This document shows, one piece after another, positions 3,325 to 20,458 of a stretch of DNA of 24,000 nucleotides; position 1 is the first letter of the stretch, and each line of letters starts with the position of its first letter. The position numbers and the translations under genes are program-made. The notes below the pieces were generated by a model. It made no database searches. It was not told the origin of the DNA and was given only the letters and a program-made list of their open reading frames with translations. The stretch comes from Candidatus Stoquefichus massiliensis AP9 (GTDB lineage: Bacteria; Bacillota_I; Bacilli_A; Erysipelotrichales; Coprobacillaceae): NCBI RefSeq assembly GCF_000455285.1, contig NZ_HG005296.1, positions 31,549-55,548 of the forward strand. The letters run 5' to 3'.

Positions 3325-3333
3325 GACTCTTTT
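3301..3333. terminator. Bidirectional hairpin between convergent CYTH and YitT genes
   Basis: Perfect 13-bp stem AAAAGAGTCTTAG (3301..3313) / CTAAGACTCTTTT (3321..3333), 7-nt loop, with A/T runs on both sides. Confidence 0.6.
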
Positions 3334-4941: not shown

Positions 4942-4953
4942 AAACTCAACCTC

Positions 4954-6060
4954 CTATAAATTTGCAAGATAATAGATTCCAAGTGCATATATTTTGGCAT
5001 TTGCTACAATATCATCAATCTTCATCCATTCATTAGGTTGATGACCAATGCCTTTTTGTCCTGGAAAACTTGGTCCAAATGGTACAATATTGGGCATAAG
5101 TTTTGCATAAGTTCCACCTGTTGTCGTCACTGGAGTTCCATCCATATTAGTAATTGTTTCATAAGCAATTTGCAAAGCCTTTACCATTGGACAATCTTTT
5201 TCAAATCGAACAGGGAGATAATGATGAACACATTCAACCTTGAAGTCTCCTGCTTTCTCTTGAATAGTCTTCAGCATATCATCAAGACAGGCACTTGCTG
5301 GATAAGAGAAAGTTACTGAGAATATGAGACGATGATGATTATGCTTCAATTCATAATTACGCATCTCATTCATACCAAATTCTTCATCATAGTCATCAAC
5401 ACCTAGTCTTTCACCATTAGGCTTGGCATTCATAAAATAAGTATTCACAAATGTAAAGAAATCATTAATATTTTTTTCATCAGTTGAAATCTCTATAACT
5501 GCTCTACCGCGTTCTCCATAAACAACAGGATACTTACAATCAGGTGTCCACCCCATAATTGGTGGCTTTTGATGTTTTAAATAATATTCTAAATCTTCAA
5601 ATCCAGATTCTTCATCACAACCAAAAATAATGCGTACTGGTCTCTTTAACTCTATCTGTAATAATTTTAACGCATATAAAGCATATAAACAACTCAATAG
5701 TGGTCCCTTATTATCTAAAATACCTCGAGAATAGATAAACCCATCTTTTTCATAGCCACTAAACGGTGGTTGTTTCCATCCTTCGCCAACTGGTACAACA
5801 TCTAAATGACCAATAATCCCAATATAATCATCACCTTCACCATATTGAGCCCAACCAATATAATGATCTAAATTTTCTGTATGAAAGCCTAATTCCTGTG
5901 CAAGTTTCAATACTTCATCAAGAGTTCGTGCTATATCTTTACCAAAAGGTGCATGTTTTTCTTTTTCACCTTTCACACTAGGCATACGAACAATTTTCTT
6001 AATATCTTCAATCATTTGAATAGATAATTGATCTATTTGATTTGTTATTAATGTTTCCAT
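4954..6060 (-). CDS. M20-family metallopeptidase (dipeptidase / amidohydrolase type), cytoplasmic
   Basis: 368 aa. Metal ligand motifs are present: GHLDVVP, GILDNKGP, CDEESG and a C-terminal GHQPNE. No signal peptide. The start lies 1 nt after the upstream gene's stop. Confidence 0.8.
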   Translation of the reverse strand: METLITNQIDQLSIQMIEDIKKIVRMPSVKGEKEKHAPFGKDIARTLDEVLKLAQELGFHTENLDHYIGWAQYGEGDDYIGIIGHLDVVPVGEGWKQPPFSGYEKDGFIYSRGILDNKGPLLSCLYALYALKLLQIELKRPVRIIFGCDEESGFEDLEYYLKHQKPPIMGWTPDCKYPVVYGERGRAVIEISTDEKNINDFFTFVNTYFMNAKPNGERLGVDDYDEEFGMNEMRNYELKHNHHRLIFSVTFSYPASACLDDMLKTIQEKAGDFKVECVHHYLPVRFEKDCPMVKALQIAYETITNMDGTPVTTTGGTYAKLMPNIVPFGPSFPGQKGIGHQPNEWMKIDDIVANAKIYALGIYYLANL

Positions 6061-6061
6061 A

Positions 6062-7018
6062 TTACTTCTCTTCCAATGGTGCCATTCTCGTTTTCATATA
6101 CTGATCAAGCCATTCCTGGCTCGCAACCTCATGCACACATTTCCCATCGATCATTTTTGTTAAGTAAACAGTTGGCTCTTGTAAAGCCGTTGCCACTGCA
6201 AAAGAGAAACCTTCAATATTTGTCGCAACACCCCATTCACCTTTATGATTCATTGCTATTAAAGAAAGATCTCCAGCTTTTCCTCGTCTTTGTTTTAATT
6301 CTCTATCCAAATCACAGACAGCTTTTTCACAAGCCGCTTGTGGGTGCATTCCCTCTTTCATCAATCTAACAATTTCATAAGAAATACAACCTTTCATTAA
6401 ATCTTCACCTAACCCTGTTGCACTTGCTCCACCAACTTGAGAATCAACATAGAATCCAGAACCTACAATTGGTGAGTCTCCAACACGCCCTTTTTTCTTC
6501 ATAAATAAACCACTCGTTGATGTTGCTGAAGTCATTTTTCCAAATTCATCTAAACATACCATACCGACTGTATCATGACCAGAATAGGGTTTGATTTCCT
6601 GTTCACGGACTTCTTTCATACGATTTTTAAAGTGAATTTTTGCACGTTCTGTAAGCATGTTCTTTCTTTCAAAGCCTTCTTTATGAGCAAACTTCTCTGC
6701 CCCTTCAGCAACTAACATACTATTTACTTTTTCTTGAGATAAACGTCTTGCAATGGAAATCGGATTAGCAAAATCTTTAATCGCTGCTACAGCACCCATA
6801 TCAAAAGTATCTCCATCCATAAAAGCCGCATCTAATTCAACTTCCATTTCTTCATTAGGAAGTCCACCATAACCTACTGATTTATAATACTCAAAATCTT
6901 CTACTGCCTTAATAGCTGTTTCAATAGCATCACCAGCATCTCCATGATTTGCTAAAATTTCACTTGCTTCACTAATTCCCTCAGCTGCCATACGCCATGT
7001 CGCAATAATACCCCACAT
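6062..7018 (-). CDS. Glycosylasparaginase-like Ntn hydrolase (Asparaginase_2 family; N4-(beta-N-acetylglucosaminyl)-L-asparaginase / isoaspartyl peptidase type)
   Basis: Autoprocessing/nucleophile motif GHDTVGMV followed by GRVGDSPIVGSGFY and GASATGLGEDLM. From memory this closely parallels eukaryotic and bacterial aspartylglucosaminidases (HDTIGM...GRVGDSPIPGAG). I set the start at ATG 7018 (MWGIIATW), preceded by AGGAGGT at 7026..7032. The listed TTG at 7039 lies inside that RBS. No signal peptide. Confidence 0.8.
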   Translation of the reverse strand: MWGIIATWRMAAEGISEASEILANHGDAGDAIETAIKAVEDFEYYKSVGYGGLPNEEMEVELDAAFMDGDTFDMGAVAAIKDFANPISIARRLSQEKVNSMLVAEGAEKFAHKEGFERKNMLTERAKIHFKNRMKEVREQEIKPYSGHDTVGMVCLDEFGKMTSATSTSGLFMKKKGRVGDSPIVGSGFYVDSQVGGASATGLGEDLMKGCISYEIVRLMKEGMHPQAACEKAVCDLDRELKQRRGKAGDLSLIAMNHKGEWGVATNIEGFSFAVATALQEPTVYLTKMIDGKCVHEVASQEWLDQYMKTRMAPLEEK

Positions 7019-7062
7019 ACATTTTACCTCCTTTAACAAACAAAACTGAGAATATCCCAGTT

Positions 7063-7386
7063 TTATTTTTTTGCTTTCTTCATTTCTTTAATTGCTGTTT
7101 TTAAAACCTTTTCACCATCCATTAATCCATAATCAGCAGAATCAATCACCGCAATTGGTTTTCCATTTTGACCATATCGATCAATTGTATCCTGTAATAA
7201 ATATTTTACTTGAGGTCCAAGTAAAATGCAATCAGGATTTTTAGATTCAATAATTTCTCCTAATGTTCCAATTGGAAACGCCTTGACTTCAAATGGTAAA
7301 TGATGTGCATTTGCTACATCCTGCATATTTTGGGCTAATAAACTTGTTGACATTCCATTACTACAAAATAAATAAATCTTTTTCAT
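7063..7386 (-). CDS. PTS EIIB component, lactose/cellobiose/chitobiose family (copy 1)
   Basis: 107 aa. MKKIYLFCSNGMSTSLL contains the phosphorylatable Cys, followed by the LLGPQVKY motif. Confidence 0.9.
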   Translation of the reverse strand: MKKIYLFCSNGMSTSLLAQNMQDVANAHHLPFEVKAFPIGTLGEIIESKNPDCILLGPQVKYLLQDTIDRYGQNGKPIAVIDSADYGLMDGEKVLKTAIKEMKKAKK

Positions 7387-7389
7387 TCT

Positions 7390-7728
7390 TTATTCCTCCT
7401 CTAATATTTTTGTTTCAAGACCAAAAATTCTTTGATAACAGGCATTCATCTCTTCAGCAAGAACTTTAAACTGTTCAACAGACATCACTTGATCTTGTGC
7501 ATGAATAAGTAAAAGATGATAATCATTTAAAATCCAGTTTACTTCTTCTTTGGTCAATTGATTTTGAATATCATAAACTTGAGCAAACTTATCATCGCCT
7601 TTACAAATAGACTGATTTGCTTTTTCAAAATCATTTTTTCTTGCTTCTTGAATAGATTTCATATAGTAAGCTTTTGCTTCACCAACTATTGAAATAATCA
7701 AGAAACATTTCTTAATTGATTCGTCCAT
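7390..7728 (-). CDS. PTS EIIA component, lactose/cellobiose/chitobiose family
   Basis: Small helical protein with an IHAQDQ motif carrying the conserved His. I prefer ATG 7728 (RBS AAGGGGTG 8 nt upstream) over the GTG at 7737 in the ORF track. Confidence 0.85.
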   Translation of the reverse strand: MDESIKKCFLIISIVGEAKAYYMKSIQEARKNDFEKANQSICKGDDKFAQVYDIQNQLTKEEVNWILNDYHLLLIHAQDQVMSVEQFKVLAEEMNACYQRIFGLETKILEEE

Positions 7729-7796
7729 CTTCTTCACCCCTTATCAATCACAATACTATTGTACTCTTCTTTTCTCTTTTATTCTTTTAACTGTTT

Positions 7797-7813
7797 TTCC
7801 TAGCACTTAGGAA
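7797..7813. promoter_or_regulatory. Operator palindrome S1 (TTCCTAGCACTTAGGAA) serving the EIIA operon promoter
   Basis: 17-bp inverted repeat with T/A-run flanks (7794..7816). It lies 33 nt from a minus-strand -10 TACAAT at 7758..7763. Confidence 0.6.
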
Positions 7814-7830
7814 AAATATACTTATAAGAT

Positions 7831-7847
7831 TTCCTAATAACTAGGAA
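7831..7847. promoter_or_regulatory. Operator palindrome S2 (TTCCTAATAACTAGGAA) serving the M3 peptidase promoter
   Basis: 17-bp inverted repeat, 32 nt from a plus-strand -10 TATACT at 7880..7885. Its centre is 34 bp from the centre of S1. Confidence 0.6.
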
Positions 7848-7913
7848 AAACATTTCAAATATCTTTTTGTTATTTCCTTTATACTTATCAATAGAACAAA
7901 GGAGGTATAACAT

Positions 7914-9638
7914 ATGAATTATCAATGGTCATTAGATGCATTATATAAAGGATATCAAGATCCTCAATATCAAAAAGATTTCTCTCTATATATAAAGTTA
8001 TCAACACAATTCTCTCAATATATAAAAACAATGAATGATAACGAATCATCCATAAAAGAAGGATTAAAACTATTAGAAAAAGAATATGATTATAGTTATC
8101 GTTTAAAGATGTATTCTTTACTTATTCAAACAATGGATTCTACAAATAAAGAGGCAATAAGAGAACTTCAAAAAATATCAGATTTACAATCTTCATATTC
8201 TTCTTTTATTATCAAAATCGAGAATCATTTAGGATCACTCAATATACAATCAGCAGATCCATTCCTTTTAGAATATCAATATTATTTAAAAGGATTGAAA
8301 GATAAACAAAAACATACTCTCAACTCTTTACAAGAAGATATTCTTTCTGCCTTGTATCCCTCAACATTAAAATCAATGAGTGATATGTATTATCATTTAA
8401 CATCATGTGCACATCTTGAATGTTTAGGTCAAGATATGACACTCACGCAAATCAAAAACTTATGCCATGATCCATCACAAAATATCAGAAAAGAAGCATT
8501 CTTAAAAGAAATGGAGTGTTATCAGCAAATTGCGGAACCATTAAGTTTTGCTATGAACAATATCAAAAAGCAACAGCTTTATATATCTCGTTTAAGAGGA
8601 TATCAGGATCCTTTAGATAAGATGTTAAAAGAGAGTGGTATGAAAAAAGAAACATTAGATGCTATGATATCTTCAGTTGAAGACTATCTACCAATATTTC
8701 AAGAATACCTATATAACAAAGCCAAAAAATTGGGACATGAAAATGGAATGCCTTGGTATGATATTTATGCAACGATTGATGAATGTCAATATCATTTTAC
8801 CATTGATGAATGTGAAGATATCATTCTTCATTGTTTTAAAGACATTGATAATTCTTTATACCAAATGACAAAAAGAGCTTTTGATGAGAAATGGATTGAT
8901 TATCCAAGTCGCAAAGGCAAACAAGGTGGTGCTTTTTGTGAAAATCTTGCTTGGATTCAAGAAAGTCGTTTAATGACAAACTACAATTCAACACTGAGTG
9001 ATGTTGTGACTGTTGCCCACGAATTAGGACATGCCTATCATGGTCATATGATTGAACATCATCGTCCTTTAAACCGTGAGTATTGTATGCCTTTAGCTGA
9101 AACTGCCTCAATGTTTAATGAAAATATTATTTATCATTCTTTTTATCAAAAAGCTGATCAAAAGAATCAAATGTTAATTTTAGATATTCAATTATCAGCA
9201 TTATGTCAAGTTGTTTGTGATATTTATGCAAGATATACTTTTGAAAAATCAGTTTTTGAAAATATTGAAAAAAATTTCTTATTTGCTGAAGATTTAAATA
9301 AACTCATGATTGATGCATTAAAAAAAGCATTTGGAAAGGGAATGGATGCAAAGTGGTTACATCCATATCGTTGGATAACAAAAGTTCATTACTATATTCC
9401 AGATATAGCATATTATAACTTTCCTTATACATTTGGCGCTTTATTTGCTAGAGGTTTATATGCTATATATCAAAATGATCATACATTCTTTAAAGATTAT
9501 CAAGAACTACTCAAAGCTTCTACAACACATACTGTTGAAGAAACTGCTATGATTGCTGGTATTGATTTAACAAAAAAAGATTTCTGGATTCAATCTTTAG
9601 AATCCATTTATCAGCAAATGTTACAATTCATGAAATGA
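7914..9638 (+). CDS. pepF: M3B-family oligoendopeptidase (PepF-like), cytoplasmic
   Basis: 574 aa. Zinc motif HELGH (VAHELGHAYHG) with a downstream Glu (LAETASMFNE). N-terminal W.LD.LY pattern as in PepF. RBS AAAGGAGG at 7898..7905. Confidence 0.85.
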   Translation: MNYQWSLDALYKGYQDPQYQKDFSLYIKLSTQFSQYIKTMNDNESSIKEGLKLLEKEYDYSYRLKMYSLLIQTMDSTNKEAIRELQKISDLQSSYSSFIIKIENHLGSLNIQSADPFLLEYQYYLKGLKDKQKHTLNSLQEDILSALYPSTLKSMSDMYYHLTSCAHLECLGQDMTLTQIKNLCHDPSQNIRKEAFLKEMECYQQIAEPLSFAMNNIKKQQLYISRLRGYQDPLDKMLKESGMKKETLDAMISSVEDYLPIFQEYLYNKAKKLGHENGMPWYDIYATIDECQYHFTIDECEDIILHCFKDIDNSLYQMTKRAFDEKWIDYPSRKGKQGGAFCENLAWIQESRLMTNYNSTLSDVVTVAHELGHAYHGHMIEHHRPLNREYCMPLAETASMFNENIIYHSFYQKADQKNQMLILDIQLSALCQVVCDIYARYTFEKSVFENIEKNFLFAEDLNKLMIDALKKAFGKGMDAKWLHPYRWITKVHYYIPDIAYYNFPYTFGALFARGLYAIYQNDHTFFKDYQELLKASTTHTVEETAMIAGIDLTKKDFWIQSLESIYQQMLQFMK

Positions 9639-9743
9639 TTAGAATCATACGAACATGATATTCAAATGAATAAACTCGCTGTTATCATCAACTTATAATG
9701 ATAACTAATATGATAGATGAGAACCTCCCTTTCTCATACAAAC

Positions 9744-9769
9744 AAAAACTGTATTTTTACAGTTTTTTT
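9744..9769 (+). terminator. Intrinsic terminator after the M3 peptidase gene
   Basis: Stem AAAAACTGTA (9744..9753) / TACAGTTTTT (9758..9767), 4-nt loop, T-run to 9769. Confidence 0.65.
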
Positions 9770-9814
9770 AATATTGTTTTTATGTGGTTGTCTTTTATTA
9801 TATTGAATATATAG

Positions 9815-9838
9815 AAAAAAGCACATCAAAGTGCTTTA
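9815..9838 (-). terminator. Probable intrinsic terminator after the M42 gene pair
   Basis: Minus strand reads AAAGCAC-TTTGAT-GTGCTTT followed by TTT (plus-strand arms 9818..9824 and 9831..9837). It overlaps the TAA stop at 9836..9838. Confidence 0.45.
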
Positions 9839-10927
9839 TCCGATTCCATGATTGAATTGTTTATATTTATTCCAGTCTAATCTTCTACATAACTCAGCAA
9901 TAGCTTCAACAGTTTGTACATAATCTTTACGATGAATGATTAAGCGATGAGAATGCATATAACGTGTAGGAATACTTAAGGTCATACAAATAACCCCATC
10001 ATATGCTTTATGAATATTATCTGCATCTGTTCCTCCTACTGTCATCATATCATAATTGATATCTAAATGAAGATCTTTACAAATAGACTCCATCTCTTTT
10101 AATAGCGCTTTATGTCCAATGATTCCAGCATCCATAATACTTAAGACAACTCCCTTACCAAGTTTTATTTGTCCTTGATCTACAGGTGTATCCATAGCTG
10201 TTGTCACGTCTAAAGCAATAGCAACATCAGGATGAATCATATTGGCAGCAGTTCTTGCTCCTCTTAATCCAACTTCTTCCTGAACAGTTCCGACAGCATA
10301 GACATCAGCTTCTATATCATCATGGGATATACGTTCTAAAACCTCAATAGCTGCTGCTGCACATAAACGATCATCCCAAGCTTTACCCATTAAATAATTA
10401 GGATTATTCATGATTTCAAACTGAGTATCTGGTGTAATCATATCACCAATTTGAATTCCTAAATCCAATACTTCTTGTCTGTTATCAACACCTAAGTCTA
10501 AGAATAAATCTATTGGTTTGATAACTTTTTCTTTGACTTCTTTTTTGAGTCCATGTGGTGCACTACTACCAATCACACCATGATATCTTTTTCCACTTGC
10601 TGTTGTAATATAGAATGTTTGTGAAGGTAGAACATGTCCCCACCAACCACCAACAGGCAAAAGTCTAATAAATCCATTTTCATCTATTTCTCTCACCATG
10701 AAACCAACTTCATCCATATGACCTGCAATCATAATCTTAGGTCCATGATGACCTTTTTTAACACCAATAATAGATCCTAAGTTATCATATGTGATTTCAT
10801 CACATATAGGTTTCATGTATTTTTTCATAATTCTACTGACTTCTTTTTCACATCCTGATATTCCATGAGCCTCACTCATTTCTTTAATCATATCAAGATT
10901 CATTTTTCCATAGGGTTCCTTTAACAT
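9836..10927 (-). CDS. M42-family aminopeptidase (FrvX/YsdC/PepA-like), paralog 1
   Basis: 363 aa. All M42 metal/catalytic motifs are present: GHMDEVGF, AWDDR, VQEEVGLRGA, ALDVT and a C-terminal YMHSH. RBS AAGAGG 7 nt upstream of ATG 10927. Confidence 0.85.
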   Translation of the reverse strand: MLKEPYGKMNLDMIKEMSEAHGISGCEKEVSRIMKKYMKPICDEITYDNLGSIIGVKKGHHGPKIMIAGHMDEVGFMVREIDENGFIRLLPVGGWWGHVLPSQTFYITTASGKRYHGVIGSSAPHGLKKEVKEKVIKPIDLFLDLGVDNRQEVLDLGIQIGDMITPDTQFEIMNNPNYLMGKAWDDRLCAAAAIEVLERISHDDIEADVYAVGTVQEEVGLRGARTAANMIHPDVAIALDVTTAMDTPVDQGQIKLGKGVVLSIMDAGIIGHKALLKEMESICKDLHLDINYDMMTVGGTDADNIHKAYDGVICMTLSIPTRYMHSHRLIIHRKDYVQTVEAIAELCRRLDWNKYKQFNHGIG

Positions 10928-10938
10928 ATCATAGCCTC

Positions 10939-11991
10939 TTATCTATTTTCTTCTTTAAATGCTTGAATTTGCTTTTCATCAAGTGAAGTCAATACTTGAA
11001 TGATCGCTTTTTGAGCACTATTATAATCTCTTAAATCAATCATAGAATTTCCAGTATGAACACCTCTAGCACAAATACATGTACTCAAAGTTGGACATCC
11101 TGCAAATAATTTATGAATCCATGCTGAATCAGTTTGTCCCATATTATAGAAATATTGATAGTCTATATCATTTTTCTGACAAATTTCAACAAGATAATTT
11201 AATAATGCACGATTAGGCATCATCCCTTTATCATAATAACGAATTAAAATTCCCTTTCCTAATTGACCAATTTCATTGTCTTTTCCTTGATAGTCATCAG
11301 CAAATGAACAATCCATCACAATCCCCATATCAGGATGAATAAGACCAGTTGCTGTCGTTGCTCCACGCATTCCTACTTCTTCCTGTACAGTTGCCCCAAT
11401 ATACAAATCATAATCCAATTCAATATCTTTTAATGCCTTTAATACTTCAATTGCCATGATACAGCCATAACGATTGTCCCATGCTTTAGATACAATACGA
11501 TTTTCATTGAAAATTGTAAAAGAACCATCAAGAACAGCACTATCTCCTACATGTATTCCCATGTTTTCAACTTCCTCTTGTCCTGATGCGCCAATATCTA
11601 TCAACATCTTCTTTTCATCACATGCCTCAATATCCTTTAATGAACAGCCAATAATACCAATAACTTCATTTCCATCCTGTTTCAATACACGTACACGACT
11701 AGATAATAAAACCTGATTATCTATTCCACCAATTTTGATAAACTTCAATAAACCATTTTTGGTGATTTCTGTAATCATTAAACCGACTTCATCCATATGA
11801 CCACATACCATAACTCTTTGTGCATTTTCTTTTTTACTCTTTTTCACTGCAAAAAGACTTCCTAAGTGATCATAAACAATTTCATCACAATAAGGCTCTA
11901 AATAAGATTTCAATAATAAAGATACTCGTCTTTCATCACCTGCAATACCTACAACTTGTGTCATTTCTTCCATTAATTTTAAACTATCCAT
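10939..11991 (-). CDS. M42-family aminopeptidase, paralog 2
   Basis: Motifs GHMDEVGL, AWDNR, VQEEVGMRGA, VMDCS and GVHTGNS. The ORF track starts at 12009. I prefer ATG 11991 (MDSLKLMEEM, RBS AAAGGCAGG 6 nt upstream) because the predicted -10 (12015..12020) puts the transcript start at about 12008. Confidence 0.8.
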   Translation of the reverse strand: MDSLKLMEEMTQVVGIAGDERRVSLLLKSYLEPYCDEIVYDHLGSLFAVKKSKKENAQRVMVCGHMDEVGLMITEITKNGLLKFIKIGGIDNQVLLSSRVRVLKQDGNEVIGIIGCSLKDIEACDEKKMLIDIGASGQEEVENMGIHVGDSAVLDGSFTIFNENRIVSKAWDNRYGCIMAIEVLKALKDIELDYDLYIGATVQEEVGMRGATTATGLIHPDMGIVMDCSFADDYQGKDNEIGQLGKGILIRYYDKGMMPNRALLNYLVEICQKNDIDYQYFYNMGQTDSAWIHKLFAGCPTLSTCICARGVHTGNSMIDLRDYNSAQKAIIQVLTSLDEKQIQAFKEENR

Positions 11992-12053
11992 AACATACCT
12001 GCCTTTCATACTCTATTATAAATCCAAATAGCTACTCACATATGTAAGTTTCT

Positions 12054-12069
12054 TTCCTATTAAACGGAA
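12054..12069. promoter_or_regulatory. Degenerate operator S3 (TTCCTATTAAACGGAA) upstream of the M42 pair
   Basis: The TTCC-N8-GGAA core is kept, with 3 mismatches to the other sites. It lies exactly 33 nt from a minus-strand TATAAT at 12015..12020. Confidence 0.4.
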
Positions 12070-12072
12070 AAA

Positions 12073-12101
12073 AAGAACATGATTTTAATAACCATGTTCT
12101 T
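12073..12101 (-). terminator. Intrinsic terminator after the GrdB-like gene
   Basis: Minus strand reads AAGAACATG-(11-nt loop containing the TAA stop)-CATGTTCTT followed by TTTTT. Plus-strand arms are 12073..12081 and 12093..12101. Confidence 0.6.
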
Positions 12102-12606
12102 TTACAAACGCACTCACATCTTCTTTATTCACTAATCGTTTTGCGAGAGTGACCATATTCGATAGAGCCTGATTTAAACCAGTTCCACCCTTTTTAGGCA
12201 TTTTTAAAATATATACCTTATCTTTATAATCAGCAATAGCTGTTTCACATTCTTGTGACATGATGGCAAAGGCTGGAATATTTGTATGTTCCTGAATTGT
12301 TAATGCTGTCTTAGCTGCCATGATACCATATTCTCCATAATTGAAACATGGTCCACAAATGACAACATCCGGTTGAATCTTTTTCGCCATGGCTGCAAAC
12401 TTTTTAGAAACAGTTTCCGGATCATTCATAAATGTTCCATTCCCACAGTATAAAGTTCCAATAATTTTCCCACCAGCATCTTTCACCTGTTTTTCAAACA
12501 TATTACAAGATCCCATTGCTATCATTTTACCACCTAATGCTAAATCTGCACTCTCTTTTCCGCCTAAACCAGCTTGAGTTTGATCAAATATCATCAATAC
12601 CTTCAT
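12085..12606 (-). CDS. Stand-alone GrdB-N-terminal-domain protein (glycine/sarcosine/betaine reductase component B family, no selenocysteine-containing half)
   Basis: 173 aa. MKVLMIFDQTQAGLGGKESAD, then GTLYCGNGTF, then QPDVVICGPCFNYGEYG. From memory this follows the N-terminal third of GrdB/PrdB-type proteins (VHY.NQF.GGIGGEEKAD ... PD.fIAGPAFNAGRYG). RBS AAGGAG 7 nt upstream. The start lies 23 nt inside the EIIB copy 2 gene. Confidence 0.6.
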   Translation of the reverse strand: MKVLMIFDQTQAGLGGKESADLALGGKMIAMGSCNMFEKQVKDAGGKIIGTLYCGNGTFMNDPETVSKKFAAMAKKIQPDVVICGPCFNYGEYGIMAAKTALTIQEHTNIPAFAIMSQECETAIADYKDKVYILKMPKKGGTGLNQALSNMVTLAKRLVNKEDVSAFVKEHGY

Positions 12607-12937
12607 CTTTCTTCTCCTTGTTTTCTTTCATTGCTAAAAGAGCTTGCTTCAAGACTTTATCACTATTTAACATTCCATAATCCTCTTGTGAAATCATCAT
12701 AATAGGAATCTTTAAATCTTTAAATCTCTGTCTTGTCTCTTCTAACAAATATTTGACTTGAGGCCCTAGAAGAATAGCATCAGGCAATGATTGCTTTTCT
12801 ATCACACTTGGCAGTTTTCCATGAGGATAAGCGACAATCTCAATGGGTAATTGATGCCTATTGGCACATTCCTGCATCATACTTGCCAGCATACTTGTTG
12901 ACATTCCCTGACTACATAATAAATATATCTTCTTCAT
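12584..12937 (-). CDS. PTS EIIB component, lactose/cellobiose/chitobiose family (copy 2)
   Basis: 117 aa. MKKIYLLCSQGMSTSML with the active Cys, plus LLGPQVKY. About half the residues match copy 1 by eye. It has an extra acidic C-terminal tail (KEKKDEGIDDI). Confidence 0.9.
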   Translation of the reverse strand: MKKIYLLCSQGMSTSMLASMMQECANRHQLPIEIVAYPHGKLPSVIEKQSLPDAILLGPQVKYLLEETRQRFKDLKIPIMMISQEDYGMLNSDKVLKQALLAMKENKEKKDEGIDDI

Positions 12938-12993
12938 CGTTCCTTATTCTCCTTTATTATAAATCAATTTCTTTTTTTATATTTCAAATTCTT

Positions 12994-13009
12994 TTCCTAA
13001 CACTAGGAA
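12994..13009. promoter_or_regulatory. Operator palindrome S4 (TTCCTAACACTAGGAA) upstream of EIIB copy 2
   Basis: 16-bp perfect inverted repeat, 32 nt from a minus-strand TATAAT at 12956..12961. The right half contains the TAG stop (13003..13005) of the S66 peptidase gene. Confidence 0.55.
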
Positions 13010-13965
13010 AGAATTCTGAGTTGTTTGTTTTCCATATCAACCTGAACTCTTCCACCAATTGGTAAAGTCATCATTGGTGTTGTATGACCAAAATCCATAT
13101 TATACATAATTGGTATATGTTTTAAAACTTGTTTAGACTCTAAAATTTTTAATAATTTATCATCTGTAATGAAACTTCCTTTTTGCATTCTCCCTATTAA
13201 TAATGCTTTCACTTTATCAAAGCCTATACATTGTGTTAAAGATTCTAAGTTTCTATCAAATTCAAATAAACTATATTCTTTTGCAACTTCACAATCCTCT
13301 TCAATTAAAATAATTTTATTTTCTAATGATGGCATATATTCTGTTCCTTGTAAAAGCTGAAATGTATTTAAATTACCTCCAATAAGAATCCCTTCAACAT
13401 TTTTTCCATGATAGACTTTCCAGCCATTATTTTTATAAAAATGGCGATGATTTTGATCCAAATACCACGCTTCATCTGACCATTCTTTTGAAGCTTTAAG
13501 TGTACAGTCATTTTCCATCAGAACCTTTTGAAATGATTCTAAAGAATATTCAAACCCCTTTTGCATAGCAAAACTTGAATAATGCAAACCTAAATATGTT
13601 ATCATTCCTGTTTTTGTATATATTGCATTGAGGAGAGCAGTTATATCTGAATATCCACAAAGAATTGTAGGATTTTCTTTGATAAGATGATAATCAAGAT
13701 AAGGTAGAATTTGATTCACTTGGAAACCACCTGTTGCAGTTATTATCACTTTTACATGAGAATCTAAAAATGCATTTTCTAAATCTTCTTTTCTATTTTG
13801 AATACTGGTTGTTAGAAATTCATTGCTTTCATAAAAATGTTTTCCATAATCCACAAAAAAACCTAAAGATTCTAACTTTTCTCTTGCTAGAATCATTGAA
13901 TCGCCTAATTGTACAGCACTCATTGATGGCGCAATCACTCTTATAAGATCACCTTTTTTAAGCAT
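13003..13965 (-). CDS. S66-family LD-carboxypeptidase (LdcA/MccF-like), cytoplasmic
   Basis: Nucleophile elbow GYSDITAL, and a C-terminal FGHTTP motif with the catalytic His. I set the start at ATG 13965 (MLKKGDLIRVIAPS), with RBS AAAAGGAG 7 nt upstream. The listed start 14025 adds 20 non-conserved residues. Confidence 0.8.
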   Translation of the reverse strand: MLKKGDLIRVIAPSMSAVQLGDSMILAREKLESLGFFVDYGKHFYESNEFLTTSIQNRKEDLENAFLDSHVKVIITATGGFQVNQILPYLDYHLIKENPTILCGYSDITALLNAIYTKTGMITYLGLHYSSFAMQKGFEYSLESFQKVLMENDCTLKASKEWSDEAWYLDQNHRHFYKNNGWKVYHGKNVEGILIGGNLNTFQLLQGTEYMPSLENKIILIEEDCEVAKEYSLFEFDRNLESLTQCIGFDKVKALLIGRMQKGSFITDDKLLKILESKQVLKHIPIMYNMDFGHTTPMMTLPIGGRVQVDMENKQLRILS

Positions 13966-14031
13966 AAGAAATCTCCTTTTCGACAGTTCTCTTGATACAT
14001 AAGAAAAATATTTATTAATTTTCATGTCATC

Positions 14032-14040
14032 ATTATATCA
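14032..14040 (-). promoter_or_regulatory. Extended -10 promoter element (TGATATAAT) for the S66 peptidase gene
   Basis: The minus strand reads TGATATAAT. No TTCCTA/TAGGAA palindrome is found 32-33 nt upstream (14071 onward), unlike all neighbouring promoters. Confidence 0.45.
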
Positions 14041-14193
14041 CAATTAGCAACCTCAAGAAACGCCAAAAATTATCATTTTACAATAATTAATTCATGAAAT
14101 ATATCATACTGACTCTTAACTTAAGTCAATCATAAATCCATTGATATGTTTACAGTTCCACCTCAATAAAACAGTATTTATGATAAAAAGAAA

Positions 14194-14218
14194 ATAGAAA
14201 AACGGACAAAATGTCCGT
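14194..14218 (-). terminator. Intrinsic terminator after EIIC
   Basis: Minus strand reads ACGGACA-TTT-TGTCCGT followed by TTTTCTATTTT (plus-strand arms 14202..14208 and 14212..14218), immediately after the EIIC stop at 14221. Confidence 0.65.
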
Positions 14219-14220
14219 CA

Positions 14221-15585
14221 TTATAAATCAGAAAGATCTAAATCATCAAATGAAATATCTTCATCATCCTCATCTTCTGCTTCTAATTCCTCTTTTAAAT
14301 ATTGTTTATCTAACGCCTTAATAAATGGGAAATAAACAAGACAGCCTAAGACTAATAAGAAGATTTGCCAGATTGCAGCAATTGGCGAACCTGTTGATAA
14401 CCATCCAGAGAAACCAATTGGCGTTGTCCATGGTAGATTCACTCCTGTTGTTCTTGGAATGATTTCCCAAAGTGTTGCTAAGTAAGATAAAACTAAGTTC
14501 ATCATTGGTACTAAGATAAATGGTATAGCAATAATTGGATTTAAAACAATTGGTAAACCAAAGATAATAGGTTCATTGATACCAAATATTCCTGGAACAA
14601 TACTTAATTTTCCTAATTGTTTAATACGCTGAGATTTACAAAATCCTAACATCACAATAACCAAAGATAGAGTAGAACCTCCACCTCCAAAATTACAGAA
14701 GAAATTAGAGAATGGATTTGTAAAGATATGTGGTAATGCTTTTCCTGCTTCAAATGCAACTTGTTGTTCAATTGTTAAGACATTTCCAATAAAATATACA
14801 GAGTTTGCTACTGCAGGTCCATTAATACCAAAAAACCATAAGAATGTACATGCAAATGAATAAATAGCATTTGCAGCTAATGTATCTCCTAATCCTTTAA
14901 GTGGTATTTGTAAGATTTCCAATACAAATTGATGTGCTGTTCCAAACGAAGTCAAACCAAATAAAATACGTACTAAGAAGAATATTGTCATAACGAATGC
15001 ACTTGGTATTAATGCAGCAAATGAATCACATACTGCTGGAGGTACCCCTTTAGGCATCTTAATCGTCCATCCCTTTTTATAAACCCATGTAAAGATTAAA
15101 ACAGAAATAAGAGCACACACAAGTCCCATAAAAATTCCATCAGCACCAATATATCTAAATGCTAATCCATCAATTCCGTTTTCAGCAGCATCACTACCTT
15201 TTAGCAAGCTGACACCTGGAATTGATCCAATTCTTGTGTTTGTCAGAATAACAAAAGCAACTAACGAAACAACTGCTCCTTGAATTTTATCTCCTTTTAA
15301 TTCTCTTGCAAATGCATAACCAGTCCCAACGCAAGTCAGTAGACCAGTCATATTAAATGTTGCTCTTGAAACATTTGTAAACCAAGTTCCCCAGTTTTCT
15401 CCAAATACACTTGTCATCATATCTTCCCAGCCTGGAATTGGGAAGTTAGCAATTAACAAGAAGATTGATCCAACAATCAATAATGGAGTCGTGATTAAGA
15501 AACCATCACGAATAGCGATTAACACTCTATTTTTACCAAGTTTATCAGCAATTGGCATTAATACGCTTTCTAATTTGTTAAACAT
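14221..15585 (-). CDS. PTS EIIC permease, lactose/cellobiose/chitobiose family, with strongly acidic C-terminal tail
   Basis: 454-aa polytopic membrane protein. The N-terminus MFNKLESVLMPIADKLGKNRVLIAIRDGF is typical of ChbC/CelB/LicC-type EIIC. RBS AAAGGAGG at 15593..15600. Tail is EELEAEDEDDEDISFDDLDLSDL. Confidence 0.9.
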   Translation of the reverse strand: MFNKLESVLMPIADKLGKNRVLIAIRDGFLITTPLLIVGSIFLLIANFPIPGWEDMMTSVFGENWGTWFTNVSRATFNMTGLLTCVGTGYAFARELKGDKIQGAVVSLVAFVILTNTRIGSIPGVSLLKGSDAAENGIDGLAFRYIGADGIFMGLVCALISVLIFTWVYKKGWTIKMPKGVPPAVCDSFAALIPSAFVMTIFFLVRILFGLTSFGTAHQFVLEILQIPLKGLGDTLAANAIYSFACTFLWFFGINGPAVANSVYFIGNVLTIEQQVAFEAGKALPHIFTNPFSNFFCNFGGGGSTLSLVIVMLGFCKSQRIKQLGKLSIVPGIFGINEPIIFGLPIVLNPIIAIPFILVPMMNLVLSYLATLWEIIPRTTGVNLPWTTPIGFSGWLSTGSPIAAIWQIFLLVLGCLVYFPFIKALDKQYLKEELEAEDEDDEDISFDDLDLSDL

Positions 15586-15653
15586 ATTTTTTCCTCCTTT
15601 TCAAATCTGTCTACATTATAACAATCAACAATATCTTATTTTTCTAAAAAGTT

Positions 15654-15670
15654 TTCCTAACATATAGGAA
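15654..15670. promoter_or_regulatory. Operator palindrome S5 (TTCCTAACATATAGGAA) upstream of EIIC
   Basis: 17-bp inverted repeat, 33 nt from a minus-strand extended -10 TGTTATAAT (15615..15623). It sits 4 nt downstream of the RDD gene stop. Confidence 0.6.
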
Positions 15671-15674
15671 ATAT

Positions 15675-16277
15675 TTAATCTTCTCCTGTTATAACTAATT
15701 TTGTTTTTGCAATATAATCATGAAACATCTTTCTTTGTGGTGATGCACATGCCCACAACATAGAAACCGCTGTGATAATACCAAATAGATAAACATAAAT
15801 ATGATTCAAATCTTTACCAACCAAAATATTAATGATCTGATGAAAATAACTAGAACTTGCTGCAATATATCCTTCAACAATCATAACGCCAATGACTTCA
15901 CGTTTCAGTAAAGTTTTAAGATCAACATCATTGTCATCATTTTTTACAACTTTAATATTCATAATCTTTTTAGCAAAAGTTTGTCCTGGATAGATCTTGA
16001 GTGGAACAATGATAAAATAAGCAAGATAAACAGTAATCGCAAGTATTCCTGCTAAAATACTATAAGGCATAGGTAATAAAGTAATATTTTGAGTAATTTC
16101 TAAATCTTGAAAAAAGATTGAATAAATGAAAACAACAGGAATTCCTGCCAGCATACTTGCTGCGTACCAGTCAATCACATAAGCAAATAAGCGTTTAAAG
16201 TTATTTACTGTTGTCGGATTTGATTCTATGATTCTTGTATTATTTAATGCTGCATAATTAATTGTAGGTTTTTTCAT
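15675..16277 (-). CDS. RDD-family-like integral membrane protein
   Basis: About 200 aa from ATG 16277 (MKKPTINY), with RBS AAGGAGA 6 nt upstream. FKRLFAYVIDWY... followed by 3-4 TM helices fits the RDD architecture. The start overlaps the regulator's last 20 nt. The listed 16361 start runs deep into the regulator gene. Confidence 0.5.
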   Translation of the reverse strand: MKKPTINYAALNNTRIIESNPTTVNNFKRLFAYVIDWYAASMLAGIPVVFIYSIFFQDLEITQNITLLPMPYSILAGILAITVYLAYFIIVPLKIYPGQTFAKKIMNIKVVKNDDNDVDLKTLLKREVIGVMIVEGYIAASSSYFHQIINILVGKDLNHIYVYLFGIITAVSMLWACASPQRKMFHDYIAKTKLVITGED

Positions 16278-18192
16278 GCGTTTTCTCCTTTGTGATTTTA
16301 CAAATAAATTCATTATAATTTTTTGATTCCAATAAATCTGAAAAATGTCCAGCTTCACCAATAGCTTGACTCAACCAATCAAAGAACATTTTTAAAATAT
16401 CATGATCTTCTTCATTGATTGCAAGCAATATCACTAATTTCACTTTAAATGAACCCCAATCAATAGGATTTTTAAGGATTGCAACAGATAATGTTGGTGT
16501 ATTCACATAGTCTCCAAATGAGTGTGGTGTTGCAAATGAATAAGCAAATGATGTTGGCGACATATCCTCTCTTTTGAGAACACCTTTTTTAAAAAACTTA
16601 TTGACGACTCCACCTTCATAAAGCTGATCACATAAATATTCAATAACATCATGTGAAGTTTTTTTATCTAAATCCATATAAAAATATTTAGGATCTATTA
16701 ATTGTGTAATCTTCTGATTAAAAACAATTTGAAATCTTTTCTTTTCTAATTTTGATAAAGCCTGAAAAATCATTGATTCATCTTCATTATTAATAAACAT
16801 ACTAACTTGAATTGTTAAGATATCTAATTCATGAGAAAGAGGTGTTGTTGTGATTAAAAGATCGGGATTTAAAGCTAAGACTTTGGCTTCTTCAAATAAT
16901 GACAAAGTTTCTACTATTTCAAGTCTTTCTCCAAATGTTGATTCAATCTTTTTTTGACCTAAAGATGAAAAGTTTTGATCATAAGGAATAATCATGACTG
17001 CCTTAAATTTACTATTTCTATTTAATCTTTCATAAGCTGCTCCAAAATGTAATGCAATAAAACCCATTTCTGATTCATTAATTTGTATATTTAATCTTTC
17101 TTCTAAAGCTTTTCCTACTGAGACACCCATCTCAAAGACTAATGGATAATTTCTTTTAATATCATGAATAAAAAGATTATCAGCATTAACATGATGTTTA
17201 TATCTATCTATAAGTCCTTGTAAATGCATCTTTAACCCTGCCATAAAATCATCATCTTCATGAAATTGTACATGTAATTTCTTTTCTATTGGTGTGACGA
17301 CTTCTTCTAGTAATTGATCCATATCAATATGAGTCTCTTCTATTTCTAAATAATCAGGTTGATATTGTCCACTCTTATTAGAAAATAGCAAAGCTAATAA
17401 ACATGTTTCATCTTCATGAATTTCTATAGGAATATCTTGTTTCAATCTTTCAAAATATTCTTTAGCAATTTTGTATTCAATACTCTTTAATAATTTTTCA
17501 TTTTTTCTTTCTGTTGTATAAAAACGACAATTTAGCATTCTTTCAATACTAATACCAATATGTAAAATGAGCATAGGAAACATTGTATCTTTAATGATAT
17601 ATTGATTTTCTTTTAATACATCAACAAGTATATCTGTCGCATTGATTAAATCAAAATCTTTATAAAACATTGCTAATTTATTTAAATTCAAGAAATTACC
17701 TTGTGTTTCATTAGATAATAACTCTTTATATAATTTTCTTTTTTCTATTTCATCACCTTTTAAATAGATATAATTCTTAGAACGAACAAGTTTAAGATGA
17801 GGATATCTTTCTAATGTCTTACGGACTTTCTTTATATCATTTTCAATCGAATAACCACTTACAAAGATATCTTCTTGTAAAAATGTTAAATTCACACCAT
17901 CTTCATGAATTAACAATTGTTGGATTAAATATGTACATCTTTGAGCTGGTGTTTGAGGAATATCAACTTGAGCATCCACATAGATTTGATTATATTTATC
18001 TAAATCAAGAAAATAACCTGTTCGAATATTAGACAAAATCAACTCCTCTTTAAAATGTTTATTAATGGCATCAATATCTGAACGTATAGTCCTATCTGAA
18101 ACACTCATAAGTCTTGCAAGTTCCTTACCTGTAATCCATTCTTTATTCTCATAAAAGATAGATATAATGCGTTCCTGTCTTTTGTTGAGCAT
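16258..18192 (-). CDS. PRD-domain PTS regulator, LicR/MtlR/ManR type (HTH + Mga-like HTH + 2 PRD + EIIB-like + EIIA-like domains)
   Basis: 644 aa. N-terminal winged HTH (ITGKELARLMSVSDRTIRSDIDAINKHF), central PRD-like helical repeats, and a C-terminal EIIA(Mtl/Fru)-like region (SFATPHSFGDYV...VILLAINEED). Confidence 0.85.
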   Translation of the reverse strand: MLNKRQERIISIFYENKEWITGKELARLMSVSDRTIRSDIDAINKHFKEELILSNIRTGYFLDLDKYNQIYVDAQVDIPQTPAQRCTYLIQQLLIHEDGVNLTFLQEDIFVSGYSIENDIKKVRKTLERYPHLKLVRSKNYIYLKGDEIEKRKLYKELLSNETQGNFLNLNKLAMFYKDFDLINATDILVDVLKENQYIIKDTMFPMLILHIGISIERMLNCRFYTTERKNEKLLKSIEYKIAKEYFERLKQDIPIEIHEDETCLLALLFSNKSGQYQPDYLEIEETHIDMDQLLEEVVTPIEKKLHVQFHEDDDFMAGLKMHLQGLIDRYKHHVNADNLFIHDIKRNYPLVFEMGVSVGKALEERLNIQINESEMGFIALHFGAAYERLNRNSKFKAVMIIPYDQNFSSLGQKKIESTFGERLEIVETLSLFEEAKVLALNPDLLITTTPLSHELDILTIQVSMFINNEDESMIFQALSKLEKKRFQIVFNQKITQLIDPKYFYMDLDKKTSHDVIEYLCDQLYEGGVVNKFFKKGVLKREDMSPTSFAYSFATPHSFGDYVNTPTLSVAILKNPIDWGSFKVKLVILLAINEEDHDILKMFFDWLSQAIGEAGHFSDLLESKNYNEFICKITKEKTHEKTYN

Positions 18193-18254
18193 ATATATAC
18201 CTCACTTTCCTACTCATTATAACAATTTTCTTTATTATTCTCTGTTATCTTTAT

Positions 18255-18271
18255 TTCCTAACTATTAGGAA
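18255..18271. promoter_or_regulatory. Operator palindrome S6 (TTCCTAACTATTAGGAA) upstream of the PRD regulator gene
   Basis: 17-bp inverted repeat, 33 nt from a minus-strand extended -10 TGTTATAAT (18216..18224). Geometry is identical to the EIIC promoter. Confidence 0.6.
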
Positions 18272-18670
18272 ATAATTATTAAATTTTAACATTTATTTCC
18301 TAATAGAATATACAAACAAAAGAAAATCAGGTCAAGAACTTTTCATTCTAAAATGATACTCTCATAAAAAAAGAACGACAGTGATATATAAGTGTTACCT
18401 ATACTATCACCATAGTTCAATTTTCATATAGTATGAATGATTTCTTTGTCTAACATTTCTATTGATTATTAACCTTTTTATTTATTTTCCAATATCCTCT
18501 TTTACTATATCCTAGATTCTTTAATTTCTCAATCGAATTGAAGTCGAATTCCTACTCACACCTACAAGTTTAGAGACTGGACATTTATTCTAACAAAAAA
18601 AGCCATTATGACATTAACTTATCATATATAGCTCCATTGAGTAAAACAATAAATTTTCACTTTTAACGAC

Positions 18671-19132: not shown

Positions 19133-19201
19133 AACATCATCTCCTTGCCTTACTATTATACATCATTTTCTACATTTATGAAATTCTTTTTTGATATTCT
19201 A

Positions 19202-19230: not shown

Positions 19231-19236
19231 GTCATT

Positions 19237-19450
19237 AAGACAAAGAAGGAATGAAGTAGTTTATAACAGATGCAGATAGAAAACTTGTGGTTGATGGAAA
19301 CAAGTCATTATTATAGATGAATTGGGATTCTGGAGTTATAGATGGCATGAGTCATTTATCGTTAATCGCGTTAAGATGAAAGAGCATATCAAATGATATG
19401 AATAAAGGTGGTACCGCGTTTATAACGTCCTTTTAGAGGGCGTTTTTATA
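19237..19450 (+). promoter_or_regulatory. T-box riboswitch leader, tryptophan specifier
   Basis: Stem I base TATAAC (19262..19267) / GTTATA (19335..19340). UGG followed by A (19331..19334) sits at the 3' end of the specifier loop. T-box sequence AAAGGTGGTACCGCG at 19404..19418. Terminator AACGTCC (19424..19430) / GGGCGTT (19438..19444) plus a T-run. Directly upstream of trpS. Confidence 0.85.
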
Positions 19451-19468: not shown

Positions 19469-20458
19469 ATGAAAAGAATGTTAAGTGGAATTAAACCAAC
19501 TGGTCGTGTGACTTTAGGAAACTATATTGGAGCTATTAAACCTTTTGTTTCTTATCAGGATGAATATGAAATGTTTATCTTTATTGCGAATCTTCATTCT
19601 ATGACCATTTATCAGGAACCAGCTGAATTAAGAAAAAACACAAAAGATTTAATTGCTTTATATATTGCAGCTGGATTAGATCCAGAAAAAGTGACTTTAT
19701 TTTTACAATCTGATGTTTTAGAACATGCTCAACTTGGTTGGTATTTAGGGTGTATGGTAACAATGGGTGAATTATCACGTATGACTCAATATAAAGATAA
19801 AGTTGCTAAAAACGAGGTTATTGGAGCTGGTATATTTAATTATCCTTCGTTAATGAATGCTGATATCTTAATGTATGATCCTGACTATGTGCCAGTTGGA
19901 GAAGATCAAAGACAGCATGTTGAGTTATGTAGAGATATTGCTGAAAAATTCAATTCTCGTTATAGCGAAACATTTAAACTACCTGAACCATTAATAGCTA
20001 AGGTTGGTGGAAGAATCATGGATTTACAGAATCCAACAAAGAAAATGTCTAAGTCTGATGAAGCTGGAAAAGGAACGATTTATATTTTAGATGATATCAA
20101 TATTTCTAAAAAGAAAATCAAATCCGCTGTTACTGATAGCGATGCACATATTCACTATGATCCAGAAAACAAACCAGGTATATCTAACTTACTAGAAATC
20201 TATTCTATTCTTTCTAATCGTTCTATTGATGATTTAGTAAAACAATATGATGGAAAAGGATATGGTGAATTTAAAACTGATCTTGCCGAAGTTGTAGGTA
20301 CTGAACTTGAAAAAATACAAGCACGTTATAAAGAAATCACAACAGGAAGTTATTTAGATGATATTTTAGAAGCAGGTGCTAATAAAGCAAGACCTATTGC
20401 TAGAAAGAAATTGGCTAAAGTTGAAAGAAAAATTGGTATTACTATTAAAAAAAGATAA
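19469..20458 (+). CDS. trpS: Tryptophan--tRNA ligase
   Basis: 329 aa. N-terminal SGIKPTG..TLGNYIGA (HIGH-like region), GEDQRQH, and a KMSKS motif (KKMSKSD). RBS AAGGAGG upstream. Confidence 0.95.
   Translation: MKRMLSGIKPTGRVTLGNYIGAIKPFVSYQDEYEMFIFIANLHSMTIYQEPAELRKNTKDLIALYIAAGLDPEKVTLFLQSDVLEHAQLGWYLGCMVTMGELSRMTQYKDKVAKNEVIGAGIFNYPSLMNADILMYDPDYVPVGEDQRQHVELCRDIAEKFNSRYSETFKLPEPLIAKVGGRIMDLQNPTKKMSKSDEAGKGTIYILDDINISKKKIKSAVTDSDAHIHYDPENKPGISNLLEIYSILSNRSIDDLVKQYDGKGYGEFKTDLAEVVGTELEKIQARYKEITTGSYLDDILEAGANKARPIARKKLAKVERKIGITIKKR

Follow-up and report, generated by a model that had tools for sequence, protein, structure and literature searches.

Two activators that contain phosphotransferase system (PTS) regulation domains (PRDs) offer the nearest described models for the element reported here. 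MtlR of Bacillus subtilis requires HPr-dependent phosphorylation and is inhibited by its own enzyme II (EII), and its operator, which ends 7 bp upstream of the -35 box, precedes both mtlA and mtlR (PMC3217849). CelR of Streptococcus mutans depends on H226, H332 and H576 to activate transcription and is inhibited by EII(Cel) through H284 and H391 (PMC4157138). For the genes around the element, the nearest model is the ega locus of Enterococcus faecalis. As described in two reports (PMC11549559, PMC11976118), this locus takes up N-acetylglucosamine (GlcNAc)-L-asparagine through a PTS with EIIB and EIIC of the lactose/cellobiose (Lac/Cel) type; it also encodes the glycosylasparaginase EgaG, a dipeptidase, a putative oxidoreductase and a GntR regulator. 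We analysed 24 kb from one genome, that of Candidatus Stoquefichus massiliensis (this whole stretch is called the window, and positions refer to it), in which six promoters carry a palindrome with the extended consensus TTTCCTA-N4/5-TAGGAAA. We propose, with a probability of about 0.85, that this palindrome is the operator of a PRD activator of the MtlR/LicR/CelR type encoded in the same window at 16258-18192.

A pattern search of the window found five exact copies of TTCCTA-N4/5-TAGGAA (S1, S2, S4, S5 and S6) and no further full copy. Their number is not explained by chance: no exact copy appeared in 100 dinucleotide-preserving shuffles of the window, and a first-order Markov simulation gave an expectation of 0.007 exact copies per 24 kb, so that a chance origin is ruled out. 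S1 (TTCCTAGCACTTAGGAA, 7797-7813) is the predicted operator of the leftward promoter of a six-gene operon beginning with EIIA and lies 33 nucleotides (nt) from the hexamer TACAAT (7758-7763, minus strand). S2 (TTCCTAATAACTAGGAA, 7831-7847) is assigned to the rightward promoter of an M3-family oligoendopeptidase gene, 32 nt from TATACT (7880-7885, plus strand). S4 (TTCCTAACACTAGGAA, 12994-13009), which has an N4 spacer, is the predicted operator of the gene for a second EIIB (EIIB2) and of a GrdB-like gene; it stands 32 nt from TATAAT (12956-12961, minus strand), itself 18 nt upstream of the EIIB2 start codon at 12937. S5 (TTCCTAACATATAGGAA, 15654-15670) starts 5 nt past the end of the gene for an RDD-family protein and would serve EIIC from 33 nt upstream of TGTTATAAT (15615-15623, minus strand), and S6 (TTCCTAACTATTAGGAA, 18255-18271), the predicted autoregulatory operator of the regulator-RDD unit, is likewise 33 nt from TGTTATAAT (18216-18224, minus strand). 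A sixth, degenerate copy, S3 (TTCCTATTAAACGGAA, 12054-12069), has two mismatches and is a predicted weak operator for a pair of M42 aminopeptidase genes, 33 nt from TATAAT (12015-12020, minus strand).

Read toward the adjacent gene, the gap between the end of TAGGAA and the hexamer is therefore 33, 32, 33, 32, 33 and 33 nt for S1 to S6. None of the six promoters has a -35-like hexamer at 17-nt spacing, and the -10 boxes downstream of S5 and S6 carry a TGn extension. With the hexamer numbered -12 to -7, the sites reach from approximately -62 to -46 and are centred near -54. These results bear out a preliminary description of this DNA, made from the sequence alone, in which the six sites and six hexamers, the 32-33-nt distance, the centre near -54, the weak or absent -35 boxes and the lack of a full motif elsewhere in the window had all been noted. 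A generic promoter scan was uninformative (86 matches versus 98 expected).

We then compared this arrangement with that of relatives. Eighty genomic loci (L001-L080), fetched via an alignment of 14 orthologues, encode regulators with 40-79% identity to that of the window and come from Erysipelotrichales, Clostridiaceae, Lachnospiraceae, Peptostreptococcaceae and one Streptococcus. In 77 of them, between one and five exact copies of TTCCTA-N3-6-TAGGAA were present. The same half-site emerged de novo: when the 160 nt that precede the regulator gene were enumerated for inverted hexamers, TTCCTA turned up in 40 of 79 loci, no other inverted hexamer was enriched there, and control regions gave at most 2. 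The spacing was conserved as well. For the 169 exact sites in the 80 loci and the window (81 sequences), a hexamer within one mismatch of TATAAT started 32 nt after the site in 56 cases and 33 nt after it in 101, together 157, whereas every remaining offset occurred 0-17 times; N4 and N5 spacers were both present, each with both offsets.

An alignment of 150 unique promoters from the window and these loci, anchored on the promoter-proximal half-site, held information in just three elements: the palindrome together with the T/A that flank it, the -10 box and, between these, a weak TTA. This TTA (T 73%, T 71%, A 59%) is found at approximately -39 to -37, 7-9 nt past the palindrome. It is not a normal -35 element, because it is too far from the -10 box (20-21 nt), and may be part of an activator or polymerase contact. 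The alignment also bears on the possibility that the six promoters are alike by descent, as duplicated copies of one promoter or of a small repeat element. Local duplication has occurred in this cluster, as its two EIIB and two M42 genes indicate. However, apart from the palindrome and the -10 box the six sequences show no relationship, either in the stretch between these elements or beyond them, the 150 promoters share nothing else, and the motif is kept where the regulators are only 40% identical. Duplication is thus very improbable, and the unrelated flanks lead us to rule it out.

The genes at which the -10 boxes point recur from genome to genome. They include the regulator gene (38 of 80 loci), EIIA (35 loci), EIIB and EIIC, and also the first M42 gene, M42a (9 loci), YitT (5), M3 (4) and glycosylasparaginase (2). 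In approximately 23 further loci of the 80, the palindrome precedes a MupG/GH170-family gene directly upstream of the regulator gene, an arrangement found in most Lachnospiraceae loci and in [Eubacterium] hominis; together with the 38 direct cases, these support the autoregulatory role that had been suggested for S6. The palindrome also precedes a YdjC/ChbG deacetylase gene in L006 and a Cof-type HAD phosphatase gene in L026 and L054. In some cases one palindrome, flanked at 32-33 nt by a -10 box on either side, serves two divergent genes, as between yitT and the regulator gene in L014 and L015, and the two-site divergent layout of S1 and S2 between M3 and EIIA is repeated in L012, L020, L022 and L023. 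By contrast, in approximately 0.75 Mb beyond the surroundings of the cluster genes, exact sites stood only before MupG, ChbG and HAD genes adjacent to the cluster; the unrelated flanking DNA, approximately 0.7 Mb, contained none. An equal frequency of the motif in unrelated DNA, which the preliminary description had named among the observations that would count against it, was not seen in these flanks.

The relatives also settle how S3 should be regarded. Approximately 3 matches with two mismatches are expected by chance per 24 kb, and an unrelated one lies at 19167, so S3 is not significant by its sequence alone, although its promoter-proximal half-site (TAGGAA on the transcribed strand) is intact. 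Orthologous M42a promoters, however, carry exact sites in nine genomes (L011, L012, L016, L020, L022, L023, L025, L026 and L054) and a one-mismatch site in L001, the closest relative. These full sites, together with the 33 nt to TATAAT, rescue S3 as a decayed copy of a real site. The true start codon of the M42 gene behind this promoter is probably the ATG at 11991, which is preceded by AAAGGCAGG.

Next to S6, we observed an extra half-site, TTTCCTAATAGAA (18295-18309), 25 nt distal of the palindrome and identical in L001 despite diverged surroundings. Its TAGAAT lies 32 nt from S6 and is directed away from the regulator gene, toward a gene-free stretch of approximately 360 nt. The corresponding position in relatives is occupied by a divergent yitT gene, and in Erysipelotrichaceae yitT is often divergent from the regulator gene and transcribed from its own or a shared palindrome. 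This may be a relic promoter, an auxiliary site or a small RNA.

A search in the opposite direction, from motif to gene, led back to the same cluster. When metagenome contigs were searched with the composite TTCCTA-N4/5-TAGGAA-N32/33-TATAAT, at least 120 stretches matched. Homologues of the cluster genes stood beside the match in 93 of the 120 stretches among the matches listed, and a PRD regulator accompanied the motif in most of those 93. Many of the other 27 are environmental contigs (Ga-series), and such matches are expected by chance because the collection is so large. Also among the matches listed were regulators only 22-24% identical to that of the window (L121, L128, L131, L180 and L190). 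The one in L180 has the same set of domains and nearly the same helix-turn-helix (HTH) stretch (GKEL..VSDRTIR), and is divergent to an EIIB-EIIC-EIIA-GH1 operon of cellobiose type; between the two, at 3514-3600, a single palindrome, TTCCTATACCTAGGAA, is flanked in both directions by -10 boxes at a distance of 32-33 nt. That a paralogue of 23% identity uses the same palindrome strengthens the link between regulator and site, and extends this type of operator to a broader LicR/CelR subfamily. A different paralogous cluster, consisting of a PRD regulator, an M42 peptidase, EIIB and EIIC, was seen in L059 (2346-7304) and L143 (7027-11907). It recalls E. coli frvABXR and in some genomes is found close to the main cluster; the sites listed include no exact palindrome near the copy in L059.

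We considered whether another factor whose gene lies elsewhere in the genome, for example a repressor or a regulator of GntR type, might bind the palindrome instead. The E. faecalis ega locus has a GntR regulator (PMC11549559), only 24 kb of the present genome is in view, and binding by the PRD regulator is a prediction. However, no GntR gene was found in the window or in the conserved cluster, and of the transcription factor genes, that of the PRD regulator alone recurs in the cluster across the 80 loci and accompanies the motif, in 77 of 80 genomes and in most of the 93 listed metagenome contigs. The same motif is retained by the 23%-identical paralogue, which has the same HTH stretch and a different operon, and a site 33 nt upstream of the -10 box of a promoter without a -35 box is in the position of an activator rather than a repressor. 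We therefore consider binding by another factor improbable. The comparative data, 77 of 80 genomes and 93 of the 120 listed metagenome matches, support the proposal, made in the preliminary description, that the palindrome is an activator site for the adjacent PRD regulator.

The domains of the regulator, which is 100% identical to a protein of Candidatus Stoquefichus massiliensis, fit this role. Its 644 residues contain Pfam matches to HTH_11 (E = 3.9e-13), HTH_Mga and Mga at residues 4-158, followed by two PRD stretches and a C-terminal PTS_EIIA_2 domain at residues 498-630. In the alignment of 14 orthologues, the candidate phospho-histidines H211, H323 and H382 (of the PRDs) and H557 (within the EIIA-like domain) and the HTH stretch VSDRTIRSD are invariant, and the second histidine of PRD1 is not conserved; the invariant HTH stretch fits an unchanged DNA specificity across the whole family. 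Pfam found neither a sigma-54 AAA+ domain nor a CAT RNA-binding domain. Databases label the protein a 'BglG family transcription antiterminator', a name that is misleading because the protein has HTH DNA-binding domains and neither of those two. Its LicT, GlcT and BglG NCBIfam matches cover only the PRD region, at 37-62 bits versus cut-offs of at least 300. From its domains we consider it an MtlR/LicR/CelR-type PRD-containing activator.

The database name nevertheless raises the question of whether the palindrome acts as a nucleic-acid hairpin, either as a target resembling the ribonucleic antiterminator (RAT) sequence or as part of a terminator, and the palindromes can indeed fold, into hairpins of 7-11 bp with -6 to -9.5 kcal/mol. 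The sites, however, are upstream of the -10 boxes and hence outside the transcripts that they would control, no T-run follows the stems, and the regulator, as described above, has HTH domains and no CAT domain. The near-sites with correct -10 spacing are also informative: 34 of 35 deviate in one arm only, and one has a compensatory change, a pattern that fits recognition by a protein better than a hairpin. Rfam gave no match to the palindrome, and found only a T-box before trpS. A hairpin is barely credible on this evidence, and position, the missing T-run, the one-sided variation and the Rfam result lead us to rule it out.

We propose the following mechanism for the PRD activator. A dimer would bind the site at approximately -62 to -46 (centre approximately -54) through its N-terminal HTH domains. 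The promoters appear to be of sigma-A type, with a good -10 box, sometimes TGn-extended, and no -35 box, and the bound activator would recruit or stabilise RNA polymerase there, the dimer on the palindrome standing in for the missing -35 contact. By analogy with S. mutans CelR, the PTS would govern activity: in the absence of preferred sugars, HPr and EI would activate the regulator by phosphorylating it, and as long as no substrate is being transported, the cognate EIIA/EIIB would keep it inactive, likewise by phosphorylation. The predicted targets are the regulator-RDD unit (autoregulation), EIIC, EIIB2 with the GrdB-like gene, the M42 pair (through the weakened S3), M3, and the operon for EIIA, EIIB, glycosylasparaginase, M20, CutC and YitT. 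Binding, the direction of regulation, the phosphorylation logic and the substrate are what we infer from sequence. A search for a catabolite-responsive element (cre), the site of CcpA, with the consensus TGWAANCGNTNWCA gave no match in the window at one mismatch or fewer. The palindrome is thus not a cre site, and catabolite control is probably exerted through the PRDs.

Several points weigh against operator function as proposed. In textbook activator spacing, class I sites are centred at -61.5 and class II sites at -41.5, and a centre near -54 fits neither. The leader of the S4 promoter would be only approximately 11 nt long and would lack the best ribosome-binding site; its implied transcript start falls inside AAAGGAG. 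This had been flagged early as the weakest promoter assignment, and the concern is real, yet L001 has the orthologous S4 site with the same layout and the same short leader. S3 is degenerate and is convincing only through the orthologous promoters with full sites. An EIIB(Gat)-like domain is expected in this regulator family, and Pfam gave no match at residues approximately 390-497. The identical operator at the paralogue's operon raises a question of specificity if both systems occur in one genome. Finally, 24 kb of genome leaves room for further sites or other regulators, and the earlier statement that the palindromes define the regulon goes further than a single stretch of this length allows.

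Gene assignments in the cluster, made with Pfam and NCBIfam, largely agree with the preliminary description of the controlled units, although an S66 gene had been overlooked, EIIC has its own terminator, and the N-terminal nucleophile (Ntn) hydrolase can now be specified as glycosylasparaginase-like. All cluster genes are on the minus strand except the M3 oligoendopeptidase gene (7914-9638, plus strand). The regulator gene is directly followed by, and slightly overlaps, the gene for an RDD-family membrane protein (15675-16361), with which it is co-transcribed; an RDD gene follows the regulator gene in 49 of the 80 loci. The RDD protein could be a membrane tether or modulator of the PRD regulator, as EIIB is for MtlR. 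Next come EIIC of the Lac/Cel family (14221-15585; terminator 14219-14201), EIIB2 (12584-12937), the GrdB-related putative oxidoreductase (12085-12606; NF041545, 246 bits versus a cut-off of 175), a terminator at 12103-12071 after the EIIB2 and GrdB-like unit (12085-12937), and the two M42 aminopeptidase genes (9836-12009). The operon at 3332-7737 encodes EIIA, EIIB, the glycosylasparaginase-like Ntn hydrolase, an M20 (PepV-like) dipeptidase, CutC and YitT.

In most of the 80 loci the order is regulator-(RDD)-EIIA-EIIB-EIIC-GrdB-like-glycosylasparaginase-M20-CutC-YitT, and the Erysipelotrichaceae variant of the cluster adds the M42 pair and M3. The GrdB-like gene is a near-constant member (70 of 80 loci). 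Its product, of 173 amino acids, resembles only the N-terminal part of glycine reductase selenoprotein B and has no selenocysteine, and a PDB sequence search with it found no relative of solved structure. CutC and YitT (3332-4941 in the window) are kept in the regulon in 43 loci each; we know of no role for either in GlcNAc-Asn catabolism. Elsewhere in the window, a T-box leader (19234-19435; Rfam RF00230, 110 bits) with a terminator at 19424-19444 precedes a tryptophanyl/tyrosyl-type tRNA synthetase gene (19469-20458).

The S66 LD-carboxypeptidase-like gene (13003-14025, minus strand, 340 amino acids) lies between EIIC and S4, and its stop codon is contained in S4. Its true start is likely M21 (MLKKGD...). 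It has its own promoter, TGATATAAT (approximately 14031-14041), without a palindrome, and is absent from L001, where EIIC directly precedes the S4-type promoter. It therefore looks like a lineage-specific insertion outside the regulon and is probably not under palindrome control, although its transcript would run through S4 into EIIB2.

What might such a regulon do? The ega locus was reportedly described by Combret et al. in 2023 as serving GlcNAc-L-asparagine utilisation in E. faecalis, and the gene content here points to an ega-like system that would import glycoprotein-derived compounds of the GlcNAc-asparagine type through its PTS and degrade them. In comparison with the PDB, the Ntn (Asparaginase_2) protein matched glycosylasparaginases at E = 7.6e-60, and isoaspartyl peptidases only at approximately 1e-33. 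In Lacticaseibacillus paracasei, a GH170/MupG-family enzyme hydrolyses PTS-imported 6-P-chitobiose (PMC12791066), an activity in keeping with the presence of MupG-family and ChbG genes behind the palindrome in relatives. The S66 and MupG-family genes might alternatively suggest muropeptide recycling. We rank this below GlcNAc-asparagine utilisation because the Ntn protein is far closer to glycosylasparaginases than to isoaspartyl peptidases, because a GH170 member acts on 6-P-chitobiose (PMC12791066), and because the S66 gene, with a promoter of its own, is an insertion specific to this lineage.

The predicted regulon places cytoplasmic peptidases (two M42, M3 and M20) under one operator with a Lac/Cel PTS and a glycosylasparaginase; in relatives, a GH170/MupG-family 6-phospho-glycosidase and a ChbG deacetylase would join them. 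The extra peptidases suggest glycopeptide substrates, and we speculate that the PTS might import, beyond GlcNAc-Asn, peptide-bearing sugars such as the N-glycopeptide stubs GlcNAc(-GlcNAc)-Asn-peptide, which would be trimmed inside the cell, an idea we hold to be doubtful. In E. coli, PTS genes stand beside M42 peptidase genes (frvX, sgcX and ypdE), a pairing that has long been unexplained; if true, glycopeptide import would account for it.

That a PRD activator has an operator and regulates its own gene is already well known. New here are the motif, the rigid spacing, the content of the regulon and the replacement of the regulator relative to Enterococcus. In the full-text literature we found no account of the motif with a PTS activator, published CelR/LicR operators lying outside this comparison, and no paper on the cluster or on a CutC/asparaginase/PTS operon; the palindrome may yet coincide with the published pneumococcal or S. 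mutans CelR box. The analysis supplies a precise operator, TTTCCTA-N4/5-TAGGAAA at 32-33 nt from the -10 box, for a family of PRD activators that occurs widely among gut Clostridia and Erysipelotrichia, mostly under the mistaken label 'antiterminator', so that the regulon could be read straight from the sequence in hundreds of genomes. It points to gut commensals that scavenge glycoprotein-derived GlcNAc-asparagine, possibly also glycopeptides, by means of a PTS. The rigid spacing without a -35 box would also make these promoters a clean model for the contact between a Gram-positive PRD activator and RNA polymerase.

Among the known systems, the proposed operator resembles that of MtlR in layout. 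Similar to MtlR of B. subtilis and Geobacillus, the regulator is a PRD activator with sigma-A promoters and a palindromic core just upstream of the -35 position, and a second copy of the operator precedes the regulator's own gene, here with predicted autoregulation; control by HPr and the cognate EII is known for MtlR and proposed here. By contrast, the palindrome spans 17-19 bp and differs in sequence from the 42-bp conserved block of MtlR, and the present system, known from sequence alone, has no -35 box, six promoters rather than two, a Lac/Cel PTS and a different substrate. In domain architecture the regulator matches S. mutans CelR and B. subtilis LicR, with two N-terminal DNA-binding domains, two PRDs, an EIIA-like domain and a Lac/Cel PTS. 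H211, H323, H382 and H557 align with H226, H332, H391 and H576 of CelR (PMC4157138), whereas H284 of CelR has no conserved counterpart here. The targets are peptidases and a glycosylasparaginase, not a phospho-beta-glucosidase. The 23%-identical paralogue that uses the same palindrome stands beside an EIIB-EIIC-EIIA-GH1 operon. The LevR-type activators (for example CelR of E. faecalis or Listeria) are also PRD-controlled, serve a Lac/Cel PTS and have a pseudo-palindromic upstream site (PMC11976118). Those proteins have an AAA+ sigma-54 domain and act approximately 100 bp upstream of -12/-24 promoters, whereas the regulator described here has no AAA+ domain and its sites stand at a fixed 32-33 nt from TATAAT -10 boxes.

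Similar to the ega locus, a glycosylasparaginase, a Lac/Cel EIIB and EIIC, a GrdB-like putative oxidoreductase and a dipeptidase are encoded together here. In addition, the present cluster has EIIA, CutC, YitT, an RDD protein, two M42 peptidases and one M3 peptidase, and it has a PRD activator with a palindrome where ega has a GntR-type regulator. These comparisons suggest that in the lineages studied here an ega-type pathway is run by a different kind of regulator than in Enterococcus.

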